DNA from: Pelagomonas calceolata
Taxonomy: Eukaryota
DNA: 64,000 bases
Reading direction: 5' to 3'
Assembly (NCBI GenBank): GCA_918797485.1
Contig: CAKKNE010000003.1
Location: forward strand, 5,146,001 to 5,210,000
In this document: piece after piece, positions 5,324 through 56,818 of the stretch
Numbering within the stretch: position 1 is the first letter of the stretch
How the letters are laid out: every line of letters begins with the position of its first letter
Made by a program: the position numbers and the translations under genes
Notes under the pieces: model-generated
The model's input: only the letters and a program-made list of their open reading frames with translations
What the model was told of the DNA's origin: nothing
The model's database searches: none

Positions 5324-5532
5324 TAGAGAGAGAAACCCTCTAGCCCTTTCCTACCCTACATATGTATCTCCCACTCTCTAAATTGAGTCTACCGCAGTAT
5401 ACATTGAGGGTCTATCGACGCTACTTTGTAAACCAGTTTATAATTCAACACTCTCGTAGTGGGTTGGCGCCAGTCCTGATAGGGCAGCCAGGACCCTGCT
5501 ACTTTACATAACGCTGCGACATACTCTTGCTA
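5324..5532 (+). mobile_element. LTR-like repeat family A (TAGAGAGAG...CTTGCTA), preceded by a polypurine tract
   Basis: Similar to copies at 15132, 42304 and 56616; ccaggggggaag lies immediately 5'. Confidence 0.7.
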
Positions 5533-15131: not shown

Positions 15132-15334
15132 TAGAGAGAGAAACCTACTAGCCCTTCCTACCTTAGATATGTATCTCCCACTCTCTAATATTTGAGTCTA
15201 TACAGCGAGTGTCTTTGACGCTACGGTGTAACAACAGTTCACTATAAAACACTCTCGTAGTCAGGTTGGCCCAGCCCTCGGCTGGTGAGCTAGGACCCTG
15301 CTACTTTACATAACGCTGCGACATACTCTTGCTA
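15132..15334 (+). mobile_element. LTR-like repeat family A copy preceded by a PPT (ccagggggag)
   Basis: Near-identical to the reverse complement of 56616-56818. Confidence 0.75.
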
Positions 15335-20589: not shown

Positions 20590-21199
20590 CAGCTGTCGCG
20601 TGTGTGTGTTGTCCACGCTGGTACGCGGCGTGAAAAACGCAAAAGTATTTGAGTAGTCGTTGGTCGATGTTTAAAAACAGGTACCGTAGGTACTGTATTA
20701 GAGTACCGTAGGTACCGTACCGTAGGTACCGTAGGTAGGTACCTACGGTACCTCACTCGTACTATAAGTACGAGCTGGCCCAGACCGTGGTCCTCGGGGC
20801 CGTGGACGACATCAAGGCCCAGTTCGCCTGGCAGGAAGCCGCGGAAGCTTCCAACTCCACCGCGTCCGGAGCTGGCAGTCCGCGGCCCCGCGGCCGGCGC
20901 GAATGCAGTGTGCCAGTGCACCTGGAGTGCGAAGAATATACCCTAGTACCCTAGATACGTACCGTTTCCCTAGTCGCTTTACACACGTCAACACAGTAAC
21001 AATGAGTGAACTTATTATTACATCTAGTGCTTATTATATTAACGGGGATTCACCTATGACCTCACTGGCAGTCCGAGTCGCCAATACAGTTGCCATGACC
21101 ACCTCAGGCTTGGCTGTACACACATTGCAGCCCCATATTTTCTTCAGGTTATGGGCCCACAGCCCACGTCGGGACTGGTCAGCAACCCCGTCATCGACA

Positions 21200-21288
21200 C
21201 CCAAGAGACCTAGCTACAGCAGCTGCATTGTGCACTTGCTGCACCCAGCTCATTAGATTCAAGCACATACCAAAGCTAATATCGCTGG
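21200..21288 (+). repeat. ~85-bp dispersed repeat B (also 48879-48975 minus and 51271-51360 plus)
   Basis: gacctagctac.....gctgcattgtgcacttgctgcacccagctcattaga...gcacatacc...taatatcgctg is shared by three loci. Confidence 0.85.
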
Positions 21289-21352
21289 ACCTACGGTACC
21301 GTACCTACCGTAGGTACCGTAGGTACGGTAGGTACGGTACCTACGGTACCTA

Positions 21353-23631
21353 CCGTCTCCGGACGTCTTTAAGTGTAACCTTATGGGTTGCGCGGCCCCG
21401 GCGGCGTTAAAATAAACTGGCAGTGTTTGGTTATCGGCAAGGGGTACCTAGGCCCTCGCGGCGCCAAAAAACGGGGCTGCCGGGTGCCGCGCCGCTGATT
21501 ATACCGGGCTCATTTACTGCTTCCATAGCGATACCCTCTGCGATAGCCTATACGCTTGCGTTAGCGACGTGAACCATCTTCGAGGCATCACATGCGTATG
21601 GGCAGGTAGCGCGGCGCATTTGAGGGTTAGCTACGTGCAGTTTATGTCTTACTCGAACGCGGGCGGCGGCGCGGCCCGAGGGGCTCTACAGACTCTCATC
21701 GCCGCTGGAAAAGTCCCAGTAACCTTTCTTGTTGGGGTCGTTGGCGATGTCGGCCAATGCCTTGGGTAGCTGGTGCGGAATGCGCTTCCAACCCATTGAT
21801 TGGAGGTACTTCTTCTTCGTAATGCGTACTTGGCTATGCTCCTGCTTGCCCTTGCTCCAGCCCTTCAGGCGGATCGTGTCCTTGGCCGCCTCATCCTTGG
21901 ACCAGAAGCAGTCGTCGAGGATCTCCGGGTCCATAGCCCAAAATTCTTCCTCGATGACTTTCCACAGCAAGTCTAATAACTTGTCCTTCGGCATCTGCTC
22001 CTTGAATTCATTGACGCGCTTGCGCACACGGCTGGCCAAGTGCGTCCACACCGCCTGGTCGAGGGCGTTGTGCGAGGGGCAGTGGCCTGCCTGCTTTCGG
22101 AATTTAATTCGGTACGTTTTGGCAGCCTTATCTAAAGTTTTGTGGTTCTCCGTCCGCGACGGAGGCCAAGTATGGTTGTCATAGCCGTGACCGGGTGCCC
22201 CATCTTCTTGTATTTCGATACAGTCCAATCCAGAGTCTTTGAAGTACTTTTGGACGGCTGCCAGGCCACCATTCGTCTGAACCATCATCTCGCAGTACTT
22301 CGCACCATCCATGGAGCAGTCGACCTGGTACTTGTCACCCGCCTTTCTGCTGTAGACTGGCTCTCTAACCATCTTTCCGACTTGTTTCGTGAATCGTTTG
22401 TCTGGTCTCAATGTATAGCCTTCTATGATGCCCTTCTCGTATACTTTCTCCTCCGTCACCCGCCAGATGCCTACCTTGCCGTCTCGCTCCCAGCTCAACC
22501 CATCCTTTGACCGTTTTGGCTGCGAGACCATCGCCATGACCATGATCTTCATGAGGTGGTTCTTGTTTTTGCATCGTTTGTACAGCTCTTTGGCTGGAGG
22601 CTCTTCTTTTTTATGGTATGTGTACTTCTCGTGGTAACCAGGGACAAAGAAGTACTTTTCGTCGACATCTGCGATCTCCTCGAAATTAGCTTGGTAGATG
22701 TATTCGGCATCAGCTAATGCAGCGTCGGCGTGCTTCTGATCCACGATCCTGGGCCGTGGAGTGACGCCATGCGTCTTGAAGTGCTTCTTTTTTATCTTTT
22801 TAACCGTCGTGAGGCCGATGTTGTTACCCTCGCCGTCTTGGACCCCGATGGCGCACACGTCGCGCGTCTTCAAAGCGCGGTTCTTTCTATAAATATCGCG
22901 CGTCTGCTTAATAATCCGGGGGTCGTCGGCCTTGCTCGTCCTCCCCACGTTACCTTAGGATAAATTTCAGTTTAGTCTCCGCTGGGGGCCCATGGGGCCT
23001 GCCGTCGCGGCGCGCGAACCCCCCGTACCGACCCGAACGAGCGGCGCTCTCTCGCGTGGCGTCGACGCAGTCGCTGGGCGACTCTCGGCGGCCGTTGAAG
23101 TGACCAAAGGACGCTGCAGATGTACCTTTTTTTCTCGAGTCTGTGGTTCCGGTAGCTTTTAGTCTCTTTTTGAGGCGCGAGATGGTGGCTTTCGTCGTCT
23201 GATAGTGCTCCAGCACGTCAGCACACGTGCCCGGTAATGCGTTCGCCTTGACCAGCTCGTACTCGCGTAATAGGTTCGCCGCGGCGCAGTTGGTGAGGTT
23301 TGATTTCCTGCCTTTACCATGTTTTAGCTGAAAATACGGGGGCTCTTCGTCCTTGAAGCGATGCTTGTAGAGGCAGATGCTTGGCACGAGGTTCTCGAAC
23401 TTAACGGGGTGCGGAATGTCGCGGCTGCCCGTCGGGCTAAAGAGGGCCTTGCGCTTGACCGAAACAGGCGGCGGCGGTCCCACAAACCGCGGAGAGAGCG
23501 GCGGCACATTGGGGATGAGGCCGCGCACGGCTGCGGCATTCAACAGCATATTTAAAGGCTCCAATTGCGTGCACCGTTGACGCTCGGTACAAAAATCTTT
23601 GAACGGTTACACTTATTCTAGGCCGGAGAGG
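21353..23631 (-). mobile_element. Full-length Tc1/mariner-superfamily DNA transposon (plant/oomycete mariner-like)
   Basis: Imperfect TIRs ccgtctccggacgtctttaagtgtaacc (21353-21380) and revcomp cctctccggcctagaataagtgtaacc (23605-23631), TA on both sides, and an internal transposase. Confidence 0.88.
21686..23564 (-). CDS. Mariner-type DDD transposase, 568 aa after removing intron 22954-23125
   Basis: Splicing gives SRKKG|NVGR. Motifs DVDEKYF, KIMVMAMVSQP, DGKVGIW, IQEDGAPGH and CPSHNALDQ parallel plant-mariner DEKWF/KVMF..VARP/DGKIG/QQDNA..H/SPDLN.LD. Confidence 0.88.
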
Positions 23632-23743
23632 TACGGTACCAGTACCGTAGGTACCTACGGTACTGTGACACAGAGCTGCCCAGGGGAAAGGAAAGGAACG
23701 CGGCAAGATGCTGGCCCGAACCGACAAAGAAGCATAAGGCTAC

Positions 23744-24978
23744 ATGTACGCGTTCGGCAGGCTGTTGTGGCGCGCGCGGGCAGGCTCTCGCCGGACCGTC
23801 GCGGGCTGCCGCCCTCCGCCCGTCGACGCGGATCATGATCTGGAGGAGATTTTGGCGAACAACAAGCGGTGGGTCGCCGCGACGAACGCGGCGGACCCGA
23901 CGTTCTTCCCGAAGTTGGCGGAGGGGCAAAGTCCTCAGTTCCTGTACGTCGGGTGCAGCGACTCGAGGCTCGTGCCGAACGACATGCTGGGGCTCGGTCT
24001 GGGGAATTTGTTCGTCCATCGCAACGTCGCGAATCTGGTCGTGGCGAGCGATTTGAACTTTTTGAGCGTGTTGACGTATGCTGTCGAACACTTGGACGTG
24101 AAACACGTATTAGTGACCGGACACTACGACTGCGGCGGCGTCCGCGCGGCGATGAAGAACCGCGGGCTCGGTGCGTCGTCCGAGTCTGTTTCACCTTCGT
24201 CCGCTAAAAATGAAGTTGAACTTGATGAACTCGATGCGGTCGCACCGATGGCGTCGACGCGGTGCCGCGCCGCCTCGACGCCGTCGACGCGGCCGTCGGA
24301 GAGTCTACCCGTCTCGGGGACAGTTTCGCGACTGCGTCGTTCCACGCAGGTCATTAACTCAGAGCAGAAAATAAACTTGAACTTGACGCCTGGTAGATGG
24401 CGTCTTCGTGAGACCGCAGTGATACGCCGTCGACCAACGCGGCCGTCAGAGAGTCTACGCGTCTCGCGAGAGAGCTGTGGCAGTTGCGCGACGCTGCTCG
24501 ACGGGTCTGCTGGGTCGCGGCGGCGGCGTCGACCCGCGACCGCCATCGCGAGGCCGATACGCCATCGTCCCAGAACTCCGACGCAGGCGTCTTGGACGGG
24601 TGGCTTACAAATATTCGGGACGTCTCTAGGCTCCACAAGGCCGAACTCGAGGCCATCGACGATTTCGAGCAGCGCCACCGGCGTCTTGTGGAATTAAACG
24701 TCGTCGAGCAGTGTTTGAACGTGTACAAAACGGCAGTCGTCCAGAGGAAGCGCCTAGAAACGCACGGCGACCCCGACGTCGCGTTCGCGTACCCGCGCAT
24801 CCACGGCCTCGTCTTTGACCCGGCCGAGGGAATCCTCAAGAAATTACCGATAGACTACACCGAGCAAATCGCCGAGCTCGGGGCCATCTATGACCTTTTC
24901 GACTGGGACCAGGACCACTACATGCTCCGCAAGGCGAGCCGCCTGCCCTCGCGACCGCCACGCGCGACCAAGGAATAG
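23744..24978 (+). CDS. Beta-carbonic anhydrase; intron 24171-24586
   Basis: GQSPQFLYVGCSDSR, FVHRNVAN, GHYDCGG; exon 2 has GWLTNIRDV...LVELNVVEQ...IHGLVFD. Confidence 0.95.
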
Positions 24979-25168
24979 TTTACAGAATTCTCGGCGGCTC
25001 CCCTCTGAACATAAGCAGATCAATACACACGGTAGCATATATAGTCGGCCGTAGAAGTCCGCAAGAAGTTCGGCTGGGGGTCGGAGGGTTGACCACTTCC
25101 ACACAAGGTCACGGTTGACACTGACGCCGGACCCCGGCCTCATGCTCAGACTAGGCTGGCAATCACCC

Positions 25169-25635
25169 TAGGATGCAAATTACCTGAGGGGTTATTGACC
25201 CCTGGCGCCGCCCGCCGGGGTTGTTACTCCGGGTAATTGCCGGTTAGTACGGCCCGGGGTTATTAACCCCAGGATCTTATAGAGGGGTCAGTGCCGGGTC
25301 ACGGTGGGGAGGGGGGGCATGGGCCTGTGACTCAGCTCTAGAGCTCAGGCTGGCGCGGGCCTGGGCCGCGCTGGGCCGCTGGCGGCGACATGCCTTGGTA
25401 CTTGCCTTGGCGTACCTCAGGCTGTACGTAGCCCAAGGCTCGCCCGGCTCAGGCAGCTTGCGCCCATCCGCTCGCCGCCTAGAAGGGTCTTTCCGAGTCG
25501 ATCGCAATCTGACTAAACCGTGACAGGTTTTAGTATCCATAAATACGGCATGGGGTTGACCCGGTATTCACCCGGATCTCTCTCGGGGTGACCAGGGGGT
25601 GATTCGCGGGCAAATGACGGGTAGGCGGCAACCTA
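25169..25635 (-). mobile_element. hAT-like MITE family C, diverged copy
   Basis: The reverse complement shares gagcggatgggcgcaag...cgccaaggcaagtaccaag...cccctctataagatcctgggg with 45864-46249 and ends in ggcaaccta. Confidence 0.75.
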
Positions 25636-25741
25636 GAATTACCCGGCCGAACAACGGGTGAGTTCTAGGTTCTACCTGCGGGCCAGTGGGGCCGTTCATA
25701 GTTGGGCACGGGAGGGGGCGAATAGCGATTATTCACATTAA

Positions 25742-26776
25742 TTACACCATCGCCATGTCGCGAAGCACCGCCTCGTATTCCGTCGTGCGGCGGCCGGCCC
25801 GGTCGCGGACGATGAGGGGTGCGGCGATCGCCTCGTCTCGTCGTCCCGCAGCATGGTCCAGGCGCCGCATGGTCCAGACGCCGAAGAGTGTCGGTTTCCC
25901 GGCGCGACCGACAACGGGGCGGTGCCCAACGACGACCAGCCCCGCCGCCTCGGCTGCCTTTTGGACGCGTCGCAGGTTGACGTGCAGGCCGCCCTCGCAC
26001 ACCACGAAAGTCCCAGTTGGCGCCATGACATCCACCGCCGCCTTGCAGTAGGCCTCGATTCCGCCGCGGAACTCGTAGCGCGCACCGGCGGACTGCTCAC
26101 AAGCGGGGAACGCGCCGAAATTCGTGGTGGCGCCCCCGGCCTCGTCCTGGGTAACGTCAAAGTACGGCGGCGTGCCCGTGACGAGCGTCGCGCCCCTCGC
26201 GCAGGCCGGCGTCGTGCGCAGGTCGCCGTCGAGCACGGCGCACGGCGCGCCGTTGTATGTCACCGAGCGGCGCGCCAAATTTGCCGAGTCTGCCTGCGCC
26301 TCGACGCCCAGCCCATCGTATCGTAGGCCCGCTTCCGTGCATCGCCACGCTACCATCTGAAGCACGGAGCCCACGCCACAGCCCAGGTCGACGTGGGTGA
26401 CCACCCCACCAAGACCTAAGGCGACTTGCGAGGCGACGTGCGCCGTGACGACGTCCTCGGTCGAGTAGCGATGACCTCCAACCCGCTGGAAGACGCGCCA
26501 ACTTCCACACAAACAGCAGAGCTCCTCTCCCGGCCCCGGCTCACCCACGCCCGCCGCGCGCGGTCCGCGGCGCGTCGACGCGCTCGACCGCGGTTGCGTG
26601 ACGCGGCCCGGTTCCGTGGAACGCTGCCTGCCGCGTCTCAGCGCCCCCGAGCCGCCGCACACGCGGCACAGGCCTGTGGCGCCCGCCGCCCGCTTGCGCC
26701 GACCCGCCGCCACGACGCCCGAGCCGCGGCATTTCCAGCAGGGGCCCGTCGCGCCGAAGCCCGGGAGCGGTGCCAT
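25742..26776 (-). CDS. SAM-dependent methyltransferase (TrmN6/YfiC-like) with an N-terminal CxxCxGxG zinc-binding pair
   Basis: GHRYSTED, VDLGCGVGSV, GVEAQ, GDLR, VTGTPPYF, ARYEFRG; CWKCRGSG and CRVCGGSG. Confidence 0.85.
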   Translation of the reverse strand: MAPLPGFGATGPCWKCRGSGVVAAGRRKRAAGATGLCRVCGGSGALRRGRQRSTEPGRVTQPRSSASTRRGPRAAGVGEPGPGEELCCLCGSWRVFQRVGGHRYSTEDVVTAHVASQVALGLGGVVTHVDLGCGVGSVLQMVAWRCTEAGLRYDGLGVEAQADSANLARRSVTYNGAPCAVLDGDLRTTPACARGATLVTGTPPYFDVTQDEAGGATTNFGAFPACEQSAGARYEFRGGIEAYCKAAVDVMAPTGTFVVCEGGLHVNLRRVQKAAEAAGLVVVGHRPVVGRAGKPTLFGVWTMRRLDHAAGRRDEAIAAPLIVRDRAGRRTTEYEAVLRDMAMV

Positions 26777-27103
26777 CCCTTGCAGCAAAGTGCAGGTGGC
26801 AAAAACCAGCTGCGCGATCAAGCGCTGTCACTTCGAAAACCGCGAGCTCTGTAGGCTCGGGGCGCAGCGCCCATCATGTCTTGCTTCGTAGGCACAGGGG
26901 GACGCTTGTCGCGCGAGCAGTACGCGTACGAAAGACCTGAAAAACCCGTCGGCCTGGCGCGCGCGCGCCGCGGTCCGCGGAGGCTAAGTCTACAAATAAG
27001 CAAATAATCATACATCACAAAAAAGAGTACTTTTGCCTTCATCACGCCAAAGTGGTTAAAGCCCTTGGATTTAGCCCGGCCCTAGCGCTGTGGTCCAGAG
27101 ACC

Positions 27104-29029: not shown

Positions 29030-30782
29030 CCGCGCTGGGCCGGCGCTCTTAGCGTCGACCTCCCGCCATCGACGCGACGACCAGCTCTCGATGGATGGAC
29101 GGTCACGAGACGAGAGGTGTCGATGGGGCAGGCGAGGCACGGGTGTCGGATCCGCATCGGCGCACCAGCGTGCCTCCTTGTTCGGGTTGTTTCCTTGGTT
29201 CGTGCACCAAGCTTCCCGCTCCTGTCTCCTCTAAAGTTCACTTTACCAGTGCTGATGATGAGGATCTTGCACCCGCCCCTTGGTCAGCACCCAGCGCAAA
29301 TTGATTTCCGGGCCGGCCCCCTTAGCGTCGACCTCCACGCCATCGACGCGACGACTAGCTCGATGGTTTCCACACGGTCACGAGACGAGGGGTAGGTGAG
29401 GCACGGGCAGGGTGTCGGATCCGCATCGGCGCACCAGAGCGTCTCCTTGTTCGGGTTGTTTCCTTGGTTCGTGCACCAAGCCTCGCTCCTGTCTCCTCTA
29501 AAGTTCACTTTACCAGTGCTGATGATGAGGATCTTGCACCCGCCCCCTTGGTCGCAGACCTGTGCAGAAATTGGATTTCCCGGGCCGGCCCCCTTAGCGT
29601 CGACCTCCACGCCATCGACGCGACGACTAGCTCGATGGTTTCCACACGGTCACGAGACGAGAGGTGTCGATTGAGACGTGGGCACGGGTGTCGGATCCGC
29701 ATCGGCGCACTTGCCGCCTCCTTGTTCGGGTTGTTTCCTTGGTTCGTGCACCAAGCTTCCCGCTCCTGTCTCCTCTAAAGTTCACTTTACCAGTGCTGAT
29801 GATGAGGATCTTGCACCCGCCCCTTGGTCGCAGACCTGTGCAGAAATTGGATTTCCCGGGCCGGCGCCCTTAGCGTCGACCTCCACGCCATCGACGCGAC
29901 GACTAGCTCGATGGTTTCCCACGGTCACGAGACGAGGGTGTCGATTGCACGAGGCACGGTGTCGGATCCGCATCGGCGCACCAGAGCGTGCCTCCTTGTT
30001 CGGGTTGTTTCCTTGGTTCGTGCACCAAGCTCGCTCCTGTCTCCTCTAAAGTTCACTTTACCAGTGCTGATGATGAGGATCTTGCACCCGCCCCCTTGGT
30101 CGCAGACACCGTGCAGAAGTTGGATTTCCCGGGCCGGCGCCCTTAGCGCCGACCTCCACGCCATCGACGCGCCACTAGCTCGATGGTTTCCACACGGTCA
30201 CGAGACGAGAGGTGTCGATTGCACGGGCACGGTGTCGGATCCGCATCGGCGCACCAGAGCGTGCCCTTGTTCGGGTTGTTTCCTTGGTTCGTGCACCAAG
30301 CTTCCGCTCCTGTCTCCTCTAAAGTTCACTTTACCAGTGCTGATGATGAGGATCTTGCACCCGCCCCCTTGGTCGCAGACCGTGCAGAAATTGATTTCCG
30401 GGCCGGCGCCCTTAAAGCCGACCTCCACGCCATCGACGCGACGACTAGCTCGATGGTTTCCACACGGTCACGAGACGAGAGGTGTTGATTGAGACGTGGG
30501 CACGGGTGTCGGATCCGCATCGGCGCACCAGAGCGTCTCCTTGTTCGGGTTGTTTCCTTGGTTCGTGCACCAAGCCTCGCTCCTGTCTCCTCTAAAGTTC
30601 ACTTTACCAGTGCTGATGATGAGGATCTTGCACCCGCCCCCTTGGTCGCAGACCTGTGCAGAAATTGGATTTCCCGGGCCGGCGCCCTTAGCGTCGACCT
30701 CCACGCCATCGACGCGACGACTAGCTCGATGGTTTCCACACGGTCACGAGACGAGAGGTGTCGATTGAGACGTGGGCACGGG
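29030..30782 (-). repeat. Tandem array of ~6.3 units of ~276 bp (intron plus 177-nt exon)
   Basis: ggtcacgagac recurs at ~29101, 29376, 29648, 29923, 30196, 30466 and 30742. Confidence 0.92.
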
Positions 30783-33700
30783 CGCCGCGACTGGAGCGGC
30801 TTCCGGCGCAGCGGTAGGCTTCAGCGTTGGCGACGGCACGGGGACCACGCTGGGCGCGGGCGTCGGCCGCGGCGTCGGCGTCGGTGTCGGTTTGGGCGTC
30901 GGCTGCGGAACCGGCCGCGGCGTTGGACCGGGCGTCGGTCGCTGCGTCGGCATCCAACAGTCGCTATTTCCGTCCTTTTGGCCAACGCCGCACGACGTCG
31001 ACTCGCACGGGGCGACGTCAAACGCGCCGTCCAGGTTCACGTCGTCGTCCACGCACCAGCCGAGGTCCTGGTCGAAGGCATAGGCCAGACAGAACATCAA
31101 ATGCATATCTCTGACGTTTTCGACGTTCCAGGCGCTGATGTCCTGGTTAAACGAGAACGCTTCGTGGAACATCATGCCCATCTCATTGACGTTGTCGACG
31201 CTCCAGCCGCCAATATTCTGATTGAACGACGAGGCGCCCAAGAACATCCCGTACATCCTCGTTACGCCGGAGGTGTCCCACGCGCCGATGTCCTGGTCGA
31301 AGGCAGAGGCGGAGTTGAACATGGAGTTCATGCTTTTGACACCGGAGGTGTCCCACGCGCCGATGTCCTGGTCGAACGACGAGGCACTGCTGAACATGGA
31401 GTCCATGTGCATGACGCTGTGGACCGCCCAACCACCGATGTCTTGATTAAAAGACGAGGCATAGTAGAACATGGAATACATCGTCGTGACGCCAGAGGTG
31501 TCCCACGCGCCGATGTCCTGGTCGAAGGCCGAGGCCCACTTGAACATGAAGGCCATCGTAGTGACGCCGGAGGTGTCCCACGCGCCGATGTCCTGGTCGA
31601 AGGCCGAGGCACTGCTGAACATGGAATACATGGATCTGACGCCCGAGGTGTCCCATGCGCTGATGTCCTGGTCGAAGGCCGAGGCACTGCTGAACATCCC
31701 GCTCATGCTCGCGACGTTGTGGACCGCCCAACCACTGATGTCCTGGTTAAACGCTGAGGCACCGCTGAACATCCAGCTCATGCTCGTTACGCTTTGGACT
31801 GCCCAATCACCGAGGTCCTGGTCGAAGGCCGAGGCATAGTAGAACATGTAGTCCATCGTAGTGACGCCGGAGGTGTCCCACGCGCCGATGTCCTGGTCGA
31901 AGGCCGAGGCACTGCTGAACATGGAATACATGGATCTGACGCCCGAGGTGTCCCATGCGCTGATGTCCTGGTCGAAGGCCGAGGCATAGTAGAACATGAA
32001 GGCCATCGTAGTGACGCCGGAGGTGTCCCACGCGCCGATGTCCTGGTCGAAGGCAGAGGCGCGGTCGAACATGGAATACATGGATCTGACGCCCGAGGTG
32101 TCCCACGCACCGATGTCTTGATTAAAAGACGAGGCGTCGCTGAACATGAAGTCCATCGTTGTGACGCCAGAGGTGTCCCACTCACTGATGTCCTCGTTGA
32201 AGGACGCAGCGGCCGAGTTGCATCCTCTAGAAGAGTAGTAAGACGAGCCGCAAAACAAATACGACATGTCCGTCAACCCTGAGGTCTCCCACGTCGAAAT
32301 ATGGCCGTACGTCGCCTCGGCGGCCGTCGCGTTTGCGAGCCACGCGGCGACTGCCGTTCTGATGTTGAAGCGGTCCATGGCGTAGCCTGTCTTGCTGGGC
32401 GCGGGCGTCGTCGGCGTCGATGTCGGTTGCGGCGTCGGGCGCTTGCTGGGCGCGGGCGTCGGCCGCGGCGTCGGCGTCGACGTCGGTTGCGGCGTCGGGC
32501 GCTTGCTGGGCGCGGGCGTCGGCCGCGGCGTCGGCGTCAACGTCGGTTGCGGCGTCGGGCTTGAAGTGGGATTCGGCGTTGGGCGCGCAGTCGGCGCGCA
32601 GGCGTCGCCCTGCAGGACGCCGCACGACGTCGACGCGCACGGGGTTATGTAGAACGCGTTGTCCAGGTCCACGCCGTCGTCCAGGCACCAACCGAGGTCC
32701 TGGTCGAAGGCCGAGGCATAGTAGAACATGTAGTACATCCTTGTGACGCCCGAGGTGTCCCACGCGCCGATGTCCTGGTTAAAGGCCGAGGCATAGTAGA
32801 ACATGAAGGCCATCGTAGTGACGCCGGAGGTGTCCCACGCGCCGATGTCCTGGTCGAAGGCCGAGGCGCGGTTGAACATGGAATACATGGATCTGACGCC
32901 CGAGGTGTCCCATGCGCTGATGTCCTGGTCGAAGGCCGAGGCGTAGCTGAACATGAACTCCATCGTCGTGACGCCCGAGGTGTCCCACGCGCCGAGGTCC
33001 TCATTGAATGATGATTTTTGTGAGAACAACGATTTCATGTCCGTCACGCCCCCAGTCTCCCACGTCGAGATGTGCCCGTAGGTCGCCTCGGCTGCCGTCG
33101 CGTTGTCGAACCACGCATTGATGGCCCATCTAATTTTCCAGTTGACCATGACGTTGCCCGAGGGCGGGAATTCACAGTCGCCCCACTTCACGCCGCAATA
33201 CGTCGACTCGCACGGGGTGTTAAAGAACATGTCCAGCATTTCCACGCCGTCGTCCACGCACCAGCCGAGGTCCTGGTCGAAGGCCGAGGCGTAGTAGAAC
33301 ATCTGGTACATCGACGTGACGCTGGAGGTGTCCCACGCGCCGATGTCCTGGTCGAAGGCCGAGGCGTAGCTGAACATGGAATACATGGATCTGACGCCAG
33401 AGGTGTCCCATGCGCCGATGTCCTGGTCGAAGGCCGAGGCGTAGCTGAACATGAATTCCATGCTCGTTACGCCCGAGGTGTCCCATGCGCTGATGTCCTC
33501 GTTAAAGGACGCCGCGGCCGAGTTGTAGTAGTCGCACCACGAGTTCGCGCAAAACAACCACGACATGTCCGTCACCCCGCCAGTCGCCCACGTCGAGATG
33601 TGGCCGTACGCCGCCTCGGCGGCCGTCGCGTCCGTGAGCCACGCGGTGACGGCGGTTCGAATGCTACTGTCACCCATCGAGCCACCGCACCGTAGTAAAG

Positions 33701-35306
33701 CCCTGTTGCCGACGCCGCACGACGTCGACTCGCAGAGGACGCCGCCGTTGAACGCGCCGAGGAGGTCCACATCGTCGTCCACACACCAGCCGAGGTCCTG
33801 GTCGAAGGCCGAGGCGCTTTGGAACATGTAGGCCATGGATCTGACGCCCGAGGTGTCCCACGCGCCGATGTCCTGGTTGAAGGCCGAGGCAGAGTAGAAC
33901 ATGGAGCTCATCGACGTCACGCCGGAGGTGTCCCACGCGCCGATGTCCTGGTCGAAGGCCGAGGCGCGGTCGAACATGGAGGTCATGGATCTGACGCCCG
34001 AGGTGTCCCACGCGCCGATGTCCTGGTCGAAGGCCGAGGCGCGGTCGAACATGGAGCTCATCGACGTCACGCCGGAGGTGTCCCACGCGCCGATGTCCTG
34101 GTCGAAGGCCGAGGCGCTTTGGAACATGTAGGCCATGGATCTGACGCCCGAGGTGTCCCACGCACCGATGTCTTGATTAAAAGACGAGGCGTCGCTGAAC
34201 ATGGAATACATCGTCGTGACGCCAGAGGTGTCCCACTCACTGATGTCCTCGTTGAAGGACGCAGCGGCCGAGTTGCATCCTCTAGAAGAGTAGTAAGACG
34301 AGCCGCAAAACAAATACGACATGTCCGTCAACCCTGAGGTCTCCCACGTCGAAATATGGCCGTACGTCGCCTCGGCGGCCGTCGCGTCCGCGAGCCACGC
34401 TGCGACTGCCGTTCTGATGTTGAAGCGGTCCATGGCGTAGCCTGTCGGGCGCGGCGTCGGGCCAGGCGTCGGCTGTCGTGTCGGCGCACAACCGCCCTCC
34501 ACTTTCGTGACGCCGCACGACAATGACGAAAAAGACTCGCACGGGGTGTTAAAGAACATGTCCAGCATTTCCACGCCGTCGTCCACGCACCAGCCGAGGT
34601 CCTGGTCGAAGGACGAGGCAGCGGTGAACATCCTTAACATCGTCGTAACGTTAGAGGTGTCCCATGCGCCGATGTCCTGGTCGAAGGCCGACGCGTAAAA
34701 GAACATGTTCTCCATGCTCGTTACGCCCGAGGTGTCCCACGCGCCAATGTCCTCGTTAAAGGACTCCGCGGCCGAGTTGTAGTAGTCGCACCACGAGTGC
34801 GCGCAAAATAACTCCTTCATGTCCGTCACCCCGCCAGTCGCCCACGTCGAGATGTGGCCGTACGTCGCCTCTGCTGCCGCCGCGTCGTCGAACCAGGCGG
34901 TAACGGCCATTTTTATGTTGCTGTCGGTCATGACGTAGCCGAGCTTGCGCCGCGTCATGGACGCATTCGCCGGTCCGAAGGGCCGAGCGGCCGCGAGGTG
35001 CGGCGAAAAGGCCAGCAGCGCGCGGAGGACCCGCACGCGCGCCGCGGAGCTGCCGTGCGTCGGCAGCGCCGAGCAGGACAAAAAGGCGCCGAATGCGACA
35101 GCACCAGCAGCGCCCCCCGCCGACGGCCGCCAGCCGCCGTCCGTTCTGTAGTTGCGCGTCGTCGGCTTGATTTTTTCTTTGCTTTGCGCTGCCGCAGGCG
35201 TCGTGGTCGCGCCAGTGGTCGTTCGCAGCAGCCGGGAGGGGGCAGCCACGATTACGAGGGCGAGTAGGGAGGCAGCCCAGGACTTGTGGTAGCGCCGCGG
35301 CGGCAT
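30477..35306 (-). CDS. Large DUF285/BspA-like 25-aa-repeat surface protein with PT linkers; probably spliced into the tandem Cys exons
   Basis: Many [25 protein letters not shown] repeats in five capped modules, with PTPxPT linkers. The ORF stop at 30744 falls inside a predicted intron 30654-30752. Confidence 0.88.
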
Positions 35307-42079: not shown

Positions 42080-42303
42080 GGCCAAAACGCGTAGCTGTAG
42101 GGATTTTAACTGCGTAGCGTCCACAGCGTATTAGCTATAGAGCTACCCCCTGGCCTTGCTAGTGCCTTACACGCCGCTAGCCTAAAGGAGAGATGTTCTG
42201 TCTTTTCCTTTATTTCTAACCAAGACTTCGGAAGATCCGAACCAGACTTCGCTGCCCACGCTGATACGGTACCGTGGTACCTACGGTACCGTACCGTAGG
42301 TAC

Positions 42304-42800
42304 TAGAGAGAGAGAAACCTACTACTAGTACTACTAGTAGCCCTTCCTACCCTAGATTTGTATCTCCCACTCTCTAAATTTGGAGTCTATACAGCGAGTG
42401 TCTTTGACGCTACGGTGTAACAACAATTTACTATAAAACACTCTCGTAGTTAGGTTGGCCCAGCCTGAGCCCTCGGCTGCAATGGAAATACACGTCTAGT
42501 AGGATCCCAAGGTTCAACTGAGACGTATCCAAGCACAACCCGTACTTGTATTACCCGCCTAGGCTACTTCCCATCCTAGGGTACTCCGATATCCCCTTAG
42601 TAGGGGGAAGTCGCCTCTCACTCCTAACTATTATCATCCTGAGTCACCTTAAATTGACGGACGTAATTCCCCGTCACAAACCCCATCAAACATGGGAGAA
42701 ACTATTTCGTTAGACGACTACACTACGCTGCCGGGGAAGTCCGGAGCTACACACTCTATTTCCCTATGCATCGCATCGGCTGGTGAGCTAGGAACCCTGA
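42304..42800 (+). mobile_element. LTR-like family A copy interrupted by a solo LTR
   Basis: Family A sequence breaks at ccctcggc and resumes as tggtgagctagga after 42780. Confidence 0.8.
42478..42775. mobile_element. Solo LTR (298 bp)
   Basis: TGCAATG...CATCGCA termini with a 5-bp TSD TCGGC (42473-42477 and 42776-42780); the empty site is visible in the 15132 copy. Confidence 0.88.
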
Positions 42801-56615: not shown

Positions 56616-56818
56616 TAGCAAGAGTATGTCGCAGCGTTATGTAAAGTAGCAGGGTGTTAGCTAACCAGCCGAGGGCTGGCTAGACCTGACTACGAGAGTG
56701 TTTTATAGTGAACTGTTGTTACACCGTAGTGCTTTTGACACTCGATGTATAGACTCAAATATTAGAGAGTGAGGGATACATATCTAGGGTAGGAAGGGCT
56801 AGTAGGTTTCTCTCTCTA
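56616..56818 (-). mobile_element. Solo LTR-like family A copy, 203 bp, with 5-bp TSD GATAC
   Basis: gatac|tagcaagag...ctctctcta|gatac. Confidence 0.85.

Follow-up and report, generated by a model that had tools for sequence, protein, structure and literature searches.

The window, meaning the whole 64-kb stretch of Pelagomonas calceolata DNA that was analysed, has a GC content of 64%; the available part of the genome paper gives 63% for the genome (PMC9481584). It contains a Tc1/mariner element bordered on both sides by arrays of TA dinucleotides and short spacers (Table 1). The right array stops just short of the transcript start of a carbonic anhydrase gene (23664-23671), so that the transcript begins 2-9 bp past the array. 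A minus-strand open reading frame of 1520 amino acids (30744-35306) carries 11 DUF285 stretches.

Table 1. Coordinates of features in the window, and of sites in related loci where a locus name precedes the position
Feature	Position	Strand	Basis or remark
Tc1/mariner element, 2279 bp, CCGT...AGG ends	21353..23631	-	between two TAs
Left terminal inverted repeat, 28 bp, CCGT then CTCCGG	21353..21380	+	alignment of both ends
Right terminal inverted repeat, CCT then CTCCGG, 27 bp against 28 at the left	23605..23631	-	alignment
Transposase, catalytic part	21686..22953	-	D96, D249, D297 of 420-aa ORF
Catalytic codons	D96 22661-22663, D249 22202-22204, D297 22058-22060	-	
Predicted GT-AG intron, 172 bp	22954..23125	-	prediction
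Transposase, N-terminal part	23126..23549	-	transcribed, transcript end near 22970-23022
Abundant transcript antisense to catalytic ORF	21366..22975	+	starts inside left terminal repeat; raw RNA reads
Carbonic anhydrase gene	23664..24697	+	Pfam Pro_CA, E 2.3e-30
Left array (putative scars)	21292..21352	none	)R F( R( F( )F F( )F )R )F )R R( )R R(; matched 5, mismatched 0, depth 3
Balanced block, nested three deep	21297..21334	none	collapses to one TA
Putative CC opening half-scar around element	21349..21350	none	closer is CGG at 23634-23636
Left TA target-site duplication	21351..21352	none	21351 is also where other copies join
Right TA duplication and right array	23632..23662	none	)R, CCAG, F( )F, R( )R
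Second array, 540 bp upstream	20682..20750	none	20704-20750 perfectly balanced: 5 pairs, depth 2
Further array	42278..42302	none	sequence parse
Nine other arrays	starts 38829, 42936, 42956, 48268, 48814, 49142, 54196, 56826, 59659	none	
199-bp repeat	15134-15332, 56616-56816, 5324-5532, 42363-42466		TA both sides, terminal repeats weak or absent
Sites of further TA-anchored words	5390, 23638, 42323; L022:1247; L075:15214; L049:2065		
Sites of 6-bp words	21103, 45608, 45785, 61136; L042:17691; L103:134; L125:438 and 468; L052:1480 and 1621; L049:2044; L060:3479		

The element has the hallmarks of the Tc1/mariner superfamily. A TA is duplicated at 21351-21352 and 23632-23633, with other copies joining at the same TA, the ends are imperfect repeats of 28 and 27 bp, and the encoded protein is a DD(E/D) transposase of the Mos1/Sleeping Beauty fold. 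Removal of the predicted intron opens a reading frame of 564 amino acids. D96, D249 and D297, numbered on the 420-aa ORF, are invariant across all 17 aligned sequences. A profile search matched the transposase to Sleeping Beauty (E 3.6e-5) and its predicted structure (pLDDT 79.5) had Mos1 as top match (E 9.5e-9), while Pfam gave no match at E 0.001. The motifs presumably resemble those of plant mariners. The second and third D are separated by 47 residues, a spacing that differs among homologues, compared with 39 in the DD39D plant mariners, so the element lies outside that class by spacing. A P. calceolata transposase homologue agrees with the translation of the window except for the gene model. 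In all four DNA-type runs the element has about 4-5 times the contig depth of its flanks, a rough sign of roughly 4-5 near-identical copies. Other copies start at TA|CCGT and end at AGG|TA in different flanks, and the left flank of one of them is without an array. These copies also led to the rejection of an alternative delimitation, in which a CTCCGG...CCGGAG element was inserted in an existing T^A, since it gives no TA duplication and CCGT and AGG travel with the element into other flanks. Small elements with CCGT/AGG ends were not found in the sequence screened, with an insensitive screen that also missed the known element. No excision joint or empty allele of the element site was found in eight runs; one joint, 21188-23642, was rejected as an empty site because 39 other letters lie between its halves, one side has 21-letter support and it matches another repeat copy.

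The transcripts over the element converge. With RNA strand calibrated on the neighbouring plus-strand carbonic anhydrase gene, sense RNA (22970-23597, minus strand) stops within the predicted intron in three raw RNA runs of one sample, meeting the plus-strand transcript that ends at 22975; a self-limiting control of the transposase is possible. No splice joint for the transposase intron was seen in these three runs of one sample, in which antisense RNA is dominant, so the element is at most a candidate for present activity and may be silenced in that sample. Two end points of wild RNA contigs (X17), 22956 and 23127, are close to those of the predicted intron, where missing cover is not evidence. 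Both borders of the predicted intron carry the same bases, AAG|GTA, a feature that brings to mind the transposon-derived introns of pelagophytes.

The left array divides exactly into 14 TA dinucleotides and 13 spacers, as the earlier note had proposed, and its last TA directly precedes the left end of the element, CCGTCTCCGG. The spacers run CGG CCG CC CCG GG CCG GG CGG GG CGG CC CGG CC. A similar array had been described at the right end; it exists, with one different spacer, CCAG, among the expected ones. In the whole window 14 arrays have at least two spacers, including the one at 20682-20750 and 9 more that were missing from the earlier note. One hundred first-order Markov copies of the window held six two-spacer arrays altogether and none longer, so the arrays are not due to chance. 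Lone spacers, by comparison, number 12 in the window, about as many as chance would give (12.7 expected).

The order of the spacers had been called irregular, and it turns out to be that of matched brackets. If CCG and GG are taken as the opening and closing signs of one orientation, written F( and )F, and CC and CGG as those of the other, R( and )R, then CCG closes with GG and CC closes with CGG. A single rule would write the spacers, by which TA is converted to TA-CCGTAGG-TA or its reverse complement. All 24 pairs in the window are matched, 21 of 21 adjacent and 3 of 3 non-adjacent, and none of 200,000 within-array shuffles was as well matched.

The rule was followed beyond the window in a metagenome collection scanned with a pairing-neutral pattern, which gave at least 130 stretches and from which 132 loci were fetched. 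Fifty-six of the 132 are linked to the window by repeats common to both, with the arrays masked; one of them, L078, overlaps L077 and was left out of pair counts, unit counts and gain comparisons, leaving 55. In the window and these 55 loci together, 196 of 202 pairs among the matches listed are matched over 107 de-duplicated arrays (184 of 190 adjacent, with 6 mismatched, and 12 of 12 non-adjacent). Of 112 linked arrays among the matches listed, 56 are fully balanced within the four-token parse, and in the unbalanced cases inspected the pairing is interrupted by point changes, by other words or by inserted repeats. Because the search seed forces an alternation of three-base and two-base spacers, palindromic junctions and arrays free of seeds were tested separately. 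Palindromic junctions, which such alternation cannot force, are allowed in 54 cases and forbidden in 6 among the matches listed, the forbidden ones being CCG-TA-CGG (2) and CC-TA-GG (4). In the 59 seed-free arrays, 62 of 66 opener-closer neighbours among the matches listed are matched, and of the 38 two-spacer arrays 29 read exactly TACCGTAGGTA or its reverse complement. An excess of same-orientation neighbours (82 vs 54) was discarded as an effect of the search seed, being gone in the arrays without seeds (13 same, 20 opposite).

The 76 unlinked loci show that the bracket test can fail. Pooled, they have 100 matched and 55 mismatched pairs among the matches listed, which indicates that token-rich DNA need not be bracketed. 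Most of the mismatches come from 8 token-dense loci chosen by eye, and the remaining loci have 71 matched pairs vs 2. L024, L048, L051 and L120 are dense in GGTA/TACC tokens with no bracket pairing (16 matched and 41 mismatched in L051); they are a different repeat system from other organisms. L012, L015, L017, L083, L090 and L108 obey the rule with no mismatch, nested pairs included, and may come from other strains or related algae. Nine viral loci had simple repeats only.

The unit CCGTAGG consists of the first four and the last three bases of the element, whose ends are unequal by one base near the tip. When all 49 combinations of i left and j right end bases were scored, 4+3 was the dominant long product, with 21 instances in the window and 214 in the linked loci (seeds included). 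The 4+2 product is minor (2 and 15), 3+3 occurs once in the window and not in the linked loci, and 4+4 in neither; all the linked-locus counts are among the matches listed. AGG, which is the actual right end of 3 nt, is seldom a spacer (6 times in the window). The element itself is placed in the central TA of a CC...CGG pair. The 9-bp unit, the seven end bases with one duplicated TA, thus has the form of an excision footprint, namely TA, terminal element bases and TA.

Whole units are also gained between homologous sequences. A TA in the 199-bp repeat is plain in L117, L125, L093 and L081 and holds the 9-bp unit in L099 and L055. One unit separates the alleles L093 and L125, which share 93% identity over 600 bp; it is again at a single homologous TA and in the orientation opposite to that of the neighbouring unit. 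L067 and L127 differ by one unit, for which a tandem copy is possible, and by one CCGTGG-TA. Gains of the 9-bp word number 3 among 119 indel contexts of 3-40 bp, and 2 of the 3 are not tandem duplications; few as they are, these gains take the predicted form. Of 18 sites in a scan anchored on both sides with a strict flank filter, 13 were identical and 5 had substitutions or changes of an unrelated kind, so that no 9-bp gain was recovered; the filter is probably the explanation.

Since the unit nests and equals the end bases of the element, each unit is likely an insertion/excision scar. We consider it highly probable that the arrays consist of one nesting 9-bp unit, matching the mariner's 4+3 end bases plus the duplicated TA, and that each unit likely records one such event. 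The writer would be this mariner family, either the element at 21353-23631 or non-autonomous relatives with the same ends. The earlier note had read the arrays as a cumulative record of transposition at hotspots, with every TA plus 2-3 nt as one scar. The footprint origin and the record are upheld. The small unit is not, as lone spacers are near chance in the window and the 9-bp unit makes up most two-spacer arrays, and one event writes two spacers with bases of both ends. The predicted footprint accordingly becomes TACCGTAGGTA instead of TACCTA or TACCGTA, and gains between alleles, which had been anticipated, occur as whole units at TA but of 9 bp instead of 4-5 bp. An order arising from independent tokens predicts that half of the neighbours are mismatched, which is far from the 62 of 66 matched in the seed-free set. 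The argument that the arrays are not a slippage microsatellite holds, as orientations are mixed and nested where slippage would give head-to-tail copies and gains that copy a neighbour. In simple simulations on the 59 seed-free arrays, the log-likelihood was -299 for nesting, -346 for independent tokens and -432 for slippage with point flips, the worst fit.

Insertion of Tc1/mariner elements duplicates TA, and on excision the non-transferred strand is cut inside each end, leaving 3' overhangs on the flanks. These overhangs are derived from the element ends, according to the available parts of two papers (PMC4423477, PMC4378557). In P. calceolata both cuts would fall at one register relative to the inner motif (T^CTCCGG), so that the left end, with its extra base, would yield 4 nt and the right end 3 nt. 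Host end joining would then fill in and keep both non-complementary overhangs untrimmed. The T and A meeting at the junction would form a new TA, and it is this junction that would allow scars to nest; one target would become three, so that each cycle adds 9 bp and two targets. Later insertions would favour the scar TAs, through local hopping or open promoter chromatin, and nested arrays would build up. By this parse, the balanced block 21297-21334 would represent four insertion/excision cycles starting from one TA. Once the element is taken out in silico, 8 matched pairs and one CCAG word can be collapsed at the focal locus; one pair, with GA in place of its first TA, and a single unmatched CGG remain, which suggests about 10 past visits in addition to the present one. 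The window as a whole holds 26 putative events over 14 sites among 1773 TAs, a window density of about 0.4 events per kb. A simple urn model puts the re-hitting of scar TAs at about 30-100-fold above average, and local hopping, open promoter chromatin or selection against insertions elsewhere could be behind such reuse.

Published data bear on this mechanism in both directions. The available part of a study of Pol mu reports that it joins non-complementary 3' overhangs and that the mammalian enzyme is less efficient with overhangs of more than 2 nt (PMC2396419). In favour of the mechanism, the P. calceolata annotation, as far as the available text describes it, has a Ku70-domain gene and Pol X genes, one best matching human Pol mu (PMC9481584). 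Rice excisions are mostly messy, with 8 of 94 perfect in the available part of that report (PMC4423477). From the limit on Pol mu and the rice excisions, a uniform 4+3 fill-in is not expected. Furthermore, the roughly 4-5 element copies are few for 26 events in 64 kb, which counts against the mechanism. So do the lack of an excision joint or empty allele in the eight runs, the 6 mismatched adjacent pairs, the half of the linked arrays that are not fully balanced, the leftover CGG at the focal locus and the array-free left flank of one copy. The bolder form of the proposal is that the mariner builds its own landing pads, end asymmetry and whole-overhang repair together turning one TA into three and drawing later jumps to harmless places used before, and that the non-coding genome of this alga, among the most common eukaryotes of the ocean, is a parseable tape of thousands of transpositions, with their order and orientation kept, written in parallel by several superfamilies, each with a fixed scar word; we put it forward as tentative, and rather doubtful as a whole.

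The strongest of the other explanations is that a few true scars seed the arrays, which then grow mostly by slippage or hairpin template switching, the 9-bp unit being copied in either orientation. The strong clustering of units leaves room for such local copying, with another token within 100 bp of 207 of 214 units (a seed-biased count among the matches listed). The focal array folds as a DNA hairpin of -20.8 kcal/mol (a raw value, without a shuffle control), the gain between L127 and L067 is compatible with tandem duplication, and a nested model with 20% tandem duplication fits equally well (-298.4 vs -299.0). Against this, neighbours in the seed-free arrays show no excess of the same orientation, all the non-adjacent brackets among the matches listed are matched, and two of the gains are not copies of a neighbour. 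Moreover, three solitary units have no token within 100 bp, in 367,518 bases where 0.05 such 11-mers are expected, and unrelated words (CCGCAG, CCAGCTTG and CTAG) are likewise gained exactly at TA with TA duplication. Growth mainly by local copying is therefore judged improbable.

That the scars come from an unrelated family whose ends are CCGT and AGG, the mariner having merely landed in one scar, is less probable still. Its appeal lies in the low copy number of the mariner, the lack of spliced mRNA in the three raw RNA runs and the presence in the window of other elements that start with CCGTA (48275 region). The 4+3 word, on the other hand, fits the one-base asymmetry of the mariner's own ends exactly, while symmetric CCGT or CCT ends would yield CCG-TA-CGG or CC-TA-GG, the rare forbidden pairs. 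We give as little weight to the explanation that selection has kept and multiplied the motif as a promoter element, with no scar involved. The right array does end just before a transcript start, and most window arrays have flanks with a lower GC content than the window mean. Selection for a binding motif leaves the nesting, the TA duplication and the match to transposon ends unexplained, and L052, which is 94% identical to the right flank (23671-26907), carries a different array and has a different repeat in place of the mariner's right end. A secondary regulatory role of the arrays is possible. The independent 4-5-bp scar of one element end for each TA plus CC, GG, CCG or CGG has next to no chance of being correct. 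It has in its favour that every spacer matches 2-3 nt of an element end or of its complement, that singles exceed expectation 1.6-fold in the seed-free set (159 vs 97-100) and that four single-token 4-bp indels occur among the indel contexts. Yet it is contradicted by the pairing statistics (15.8 matched and 15.4 mismatched pairs simulated, 62 and 4 observed), the four indels are artefacts at the ends of alignments between different insertion sites, and AGG spacers are uncommon.

Several known systems resemble the proposed nesting scar in part, as far as the available portions of the cited papers describe them. Plant mariners leave 1-4 nt of both ends (PMC9632168, PMC1925063). In the Stowaway MITE/Osmar5 system, whose Osmar5 footprints are cited here second hand, TA is duplicated and 1-4 bp of both ends are retained (TACTCC...AGTA, TACT...AGTA); the TACT...AGTA footprint forms a central TA, as does the P. 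calceolata unit, and in a Triticeae beta-amylase intron repeated insertion at one site has left elements enclosed by older footprints (PMC1925063). Footprints and reinsertion into footprints are thus already known. The Stowaway footprints are varied and come from one locus with one level of reuse (PMC1925063), whereas here one 4+3 scar dominates, nesting reaches a depth of 3-4 with up to 13 spacers, and events occur at about 0.4 per kb. Sleeping Beauty and Mos1 share the superfamily and fold, the staggered cuts, the 3' overhangs and the end joining. Their scar is TA, 3 nt and TA, with overhangs paired, 5 bp gained and no new TA (10.1101/659086, PMC4378557), and the eight listed Sleeping Beauty footprints are all 7 bp or shorter (10.1101/659086), whereas in P. 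calceolata both overhangs appear to be kept end to end with a gain of 9 bp. The ACAGT pentanucleotide of Trichoplax is also an abundant short repeat near gene starts (PMC2871265), but its 5-bp unit has no inner TA and stacks only side by side, while the units here nest and the source transposase lies inside an array; the word 'footprint' is absent from the main text of that paper as available (PMC2871265). Natural excision sites in rice were likewise read by comparing homologous loci and are mostly deletions with filler DNA (PMC4423477), in contrast to the apparently near-stereotyped repair here. In a literature search with subscription journals mostly outside its scope, no uniform, self-nesting and target-regenerating scar matched to its source element turned up, and the available part of the P. 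calceolata genome paper does not mention the motif (PMC9481584). Relative to the literature searched, what appears new is the self-nesting scar matched to its source element.

The excision half of cut-and-paste transposition is normally invisible, since the scars of lost elements are too short and varied to count. A stereotyped scar allows its copies to be counted and oriented and, where they nest, put in order. If the scar reading is true, TA-rich repeats would be a readable log of past jumps, and sequence alone, in cultures or in the wild, would make it possible to measure the lifetime rate of transposition, the reuse of targets, local hopping and the fidelity of end joining. It would also show how a class of short repeats beside promoters can arise other than by slippage, and suggest a natural self-extending DNA recorder that gains 9 bp and two new write sites with every event.

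Other short words behave in comparable ways (sites in Table 1). Among the 119 indel contexts between homologous sequences, 33 are of 6 bp, with fixed words between 2-bp duplications other than TA: CT-CAGG-CT (8), GT-CACG-GT (3), CC-CGGG-CC (2) and AT-CATG-AT (2). These look like both-end scars of other transposon superfamilies; if so, retention of whole overhangs would be a trait of host repair. Further TA-anchored words, gained whole or strongly enriched, are CCGCAG (28 vs 0.8 expected), CCGTGG (17), CCGCAGG (7), CCAG (20), CCAGCTTG and CTAG. The CTAG word also creates a central TA and may be a second nesting system. The 199-bp repeat was rejected as a source of the scars, as its ends read GAGAG...CTTGC between TAs; arrays are frequent at the ends of this repeat.
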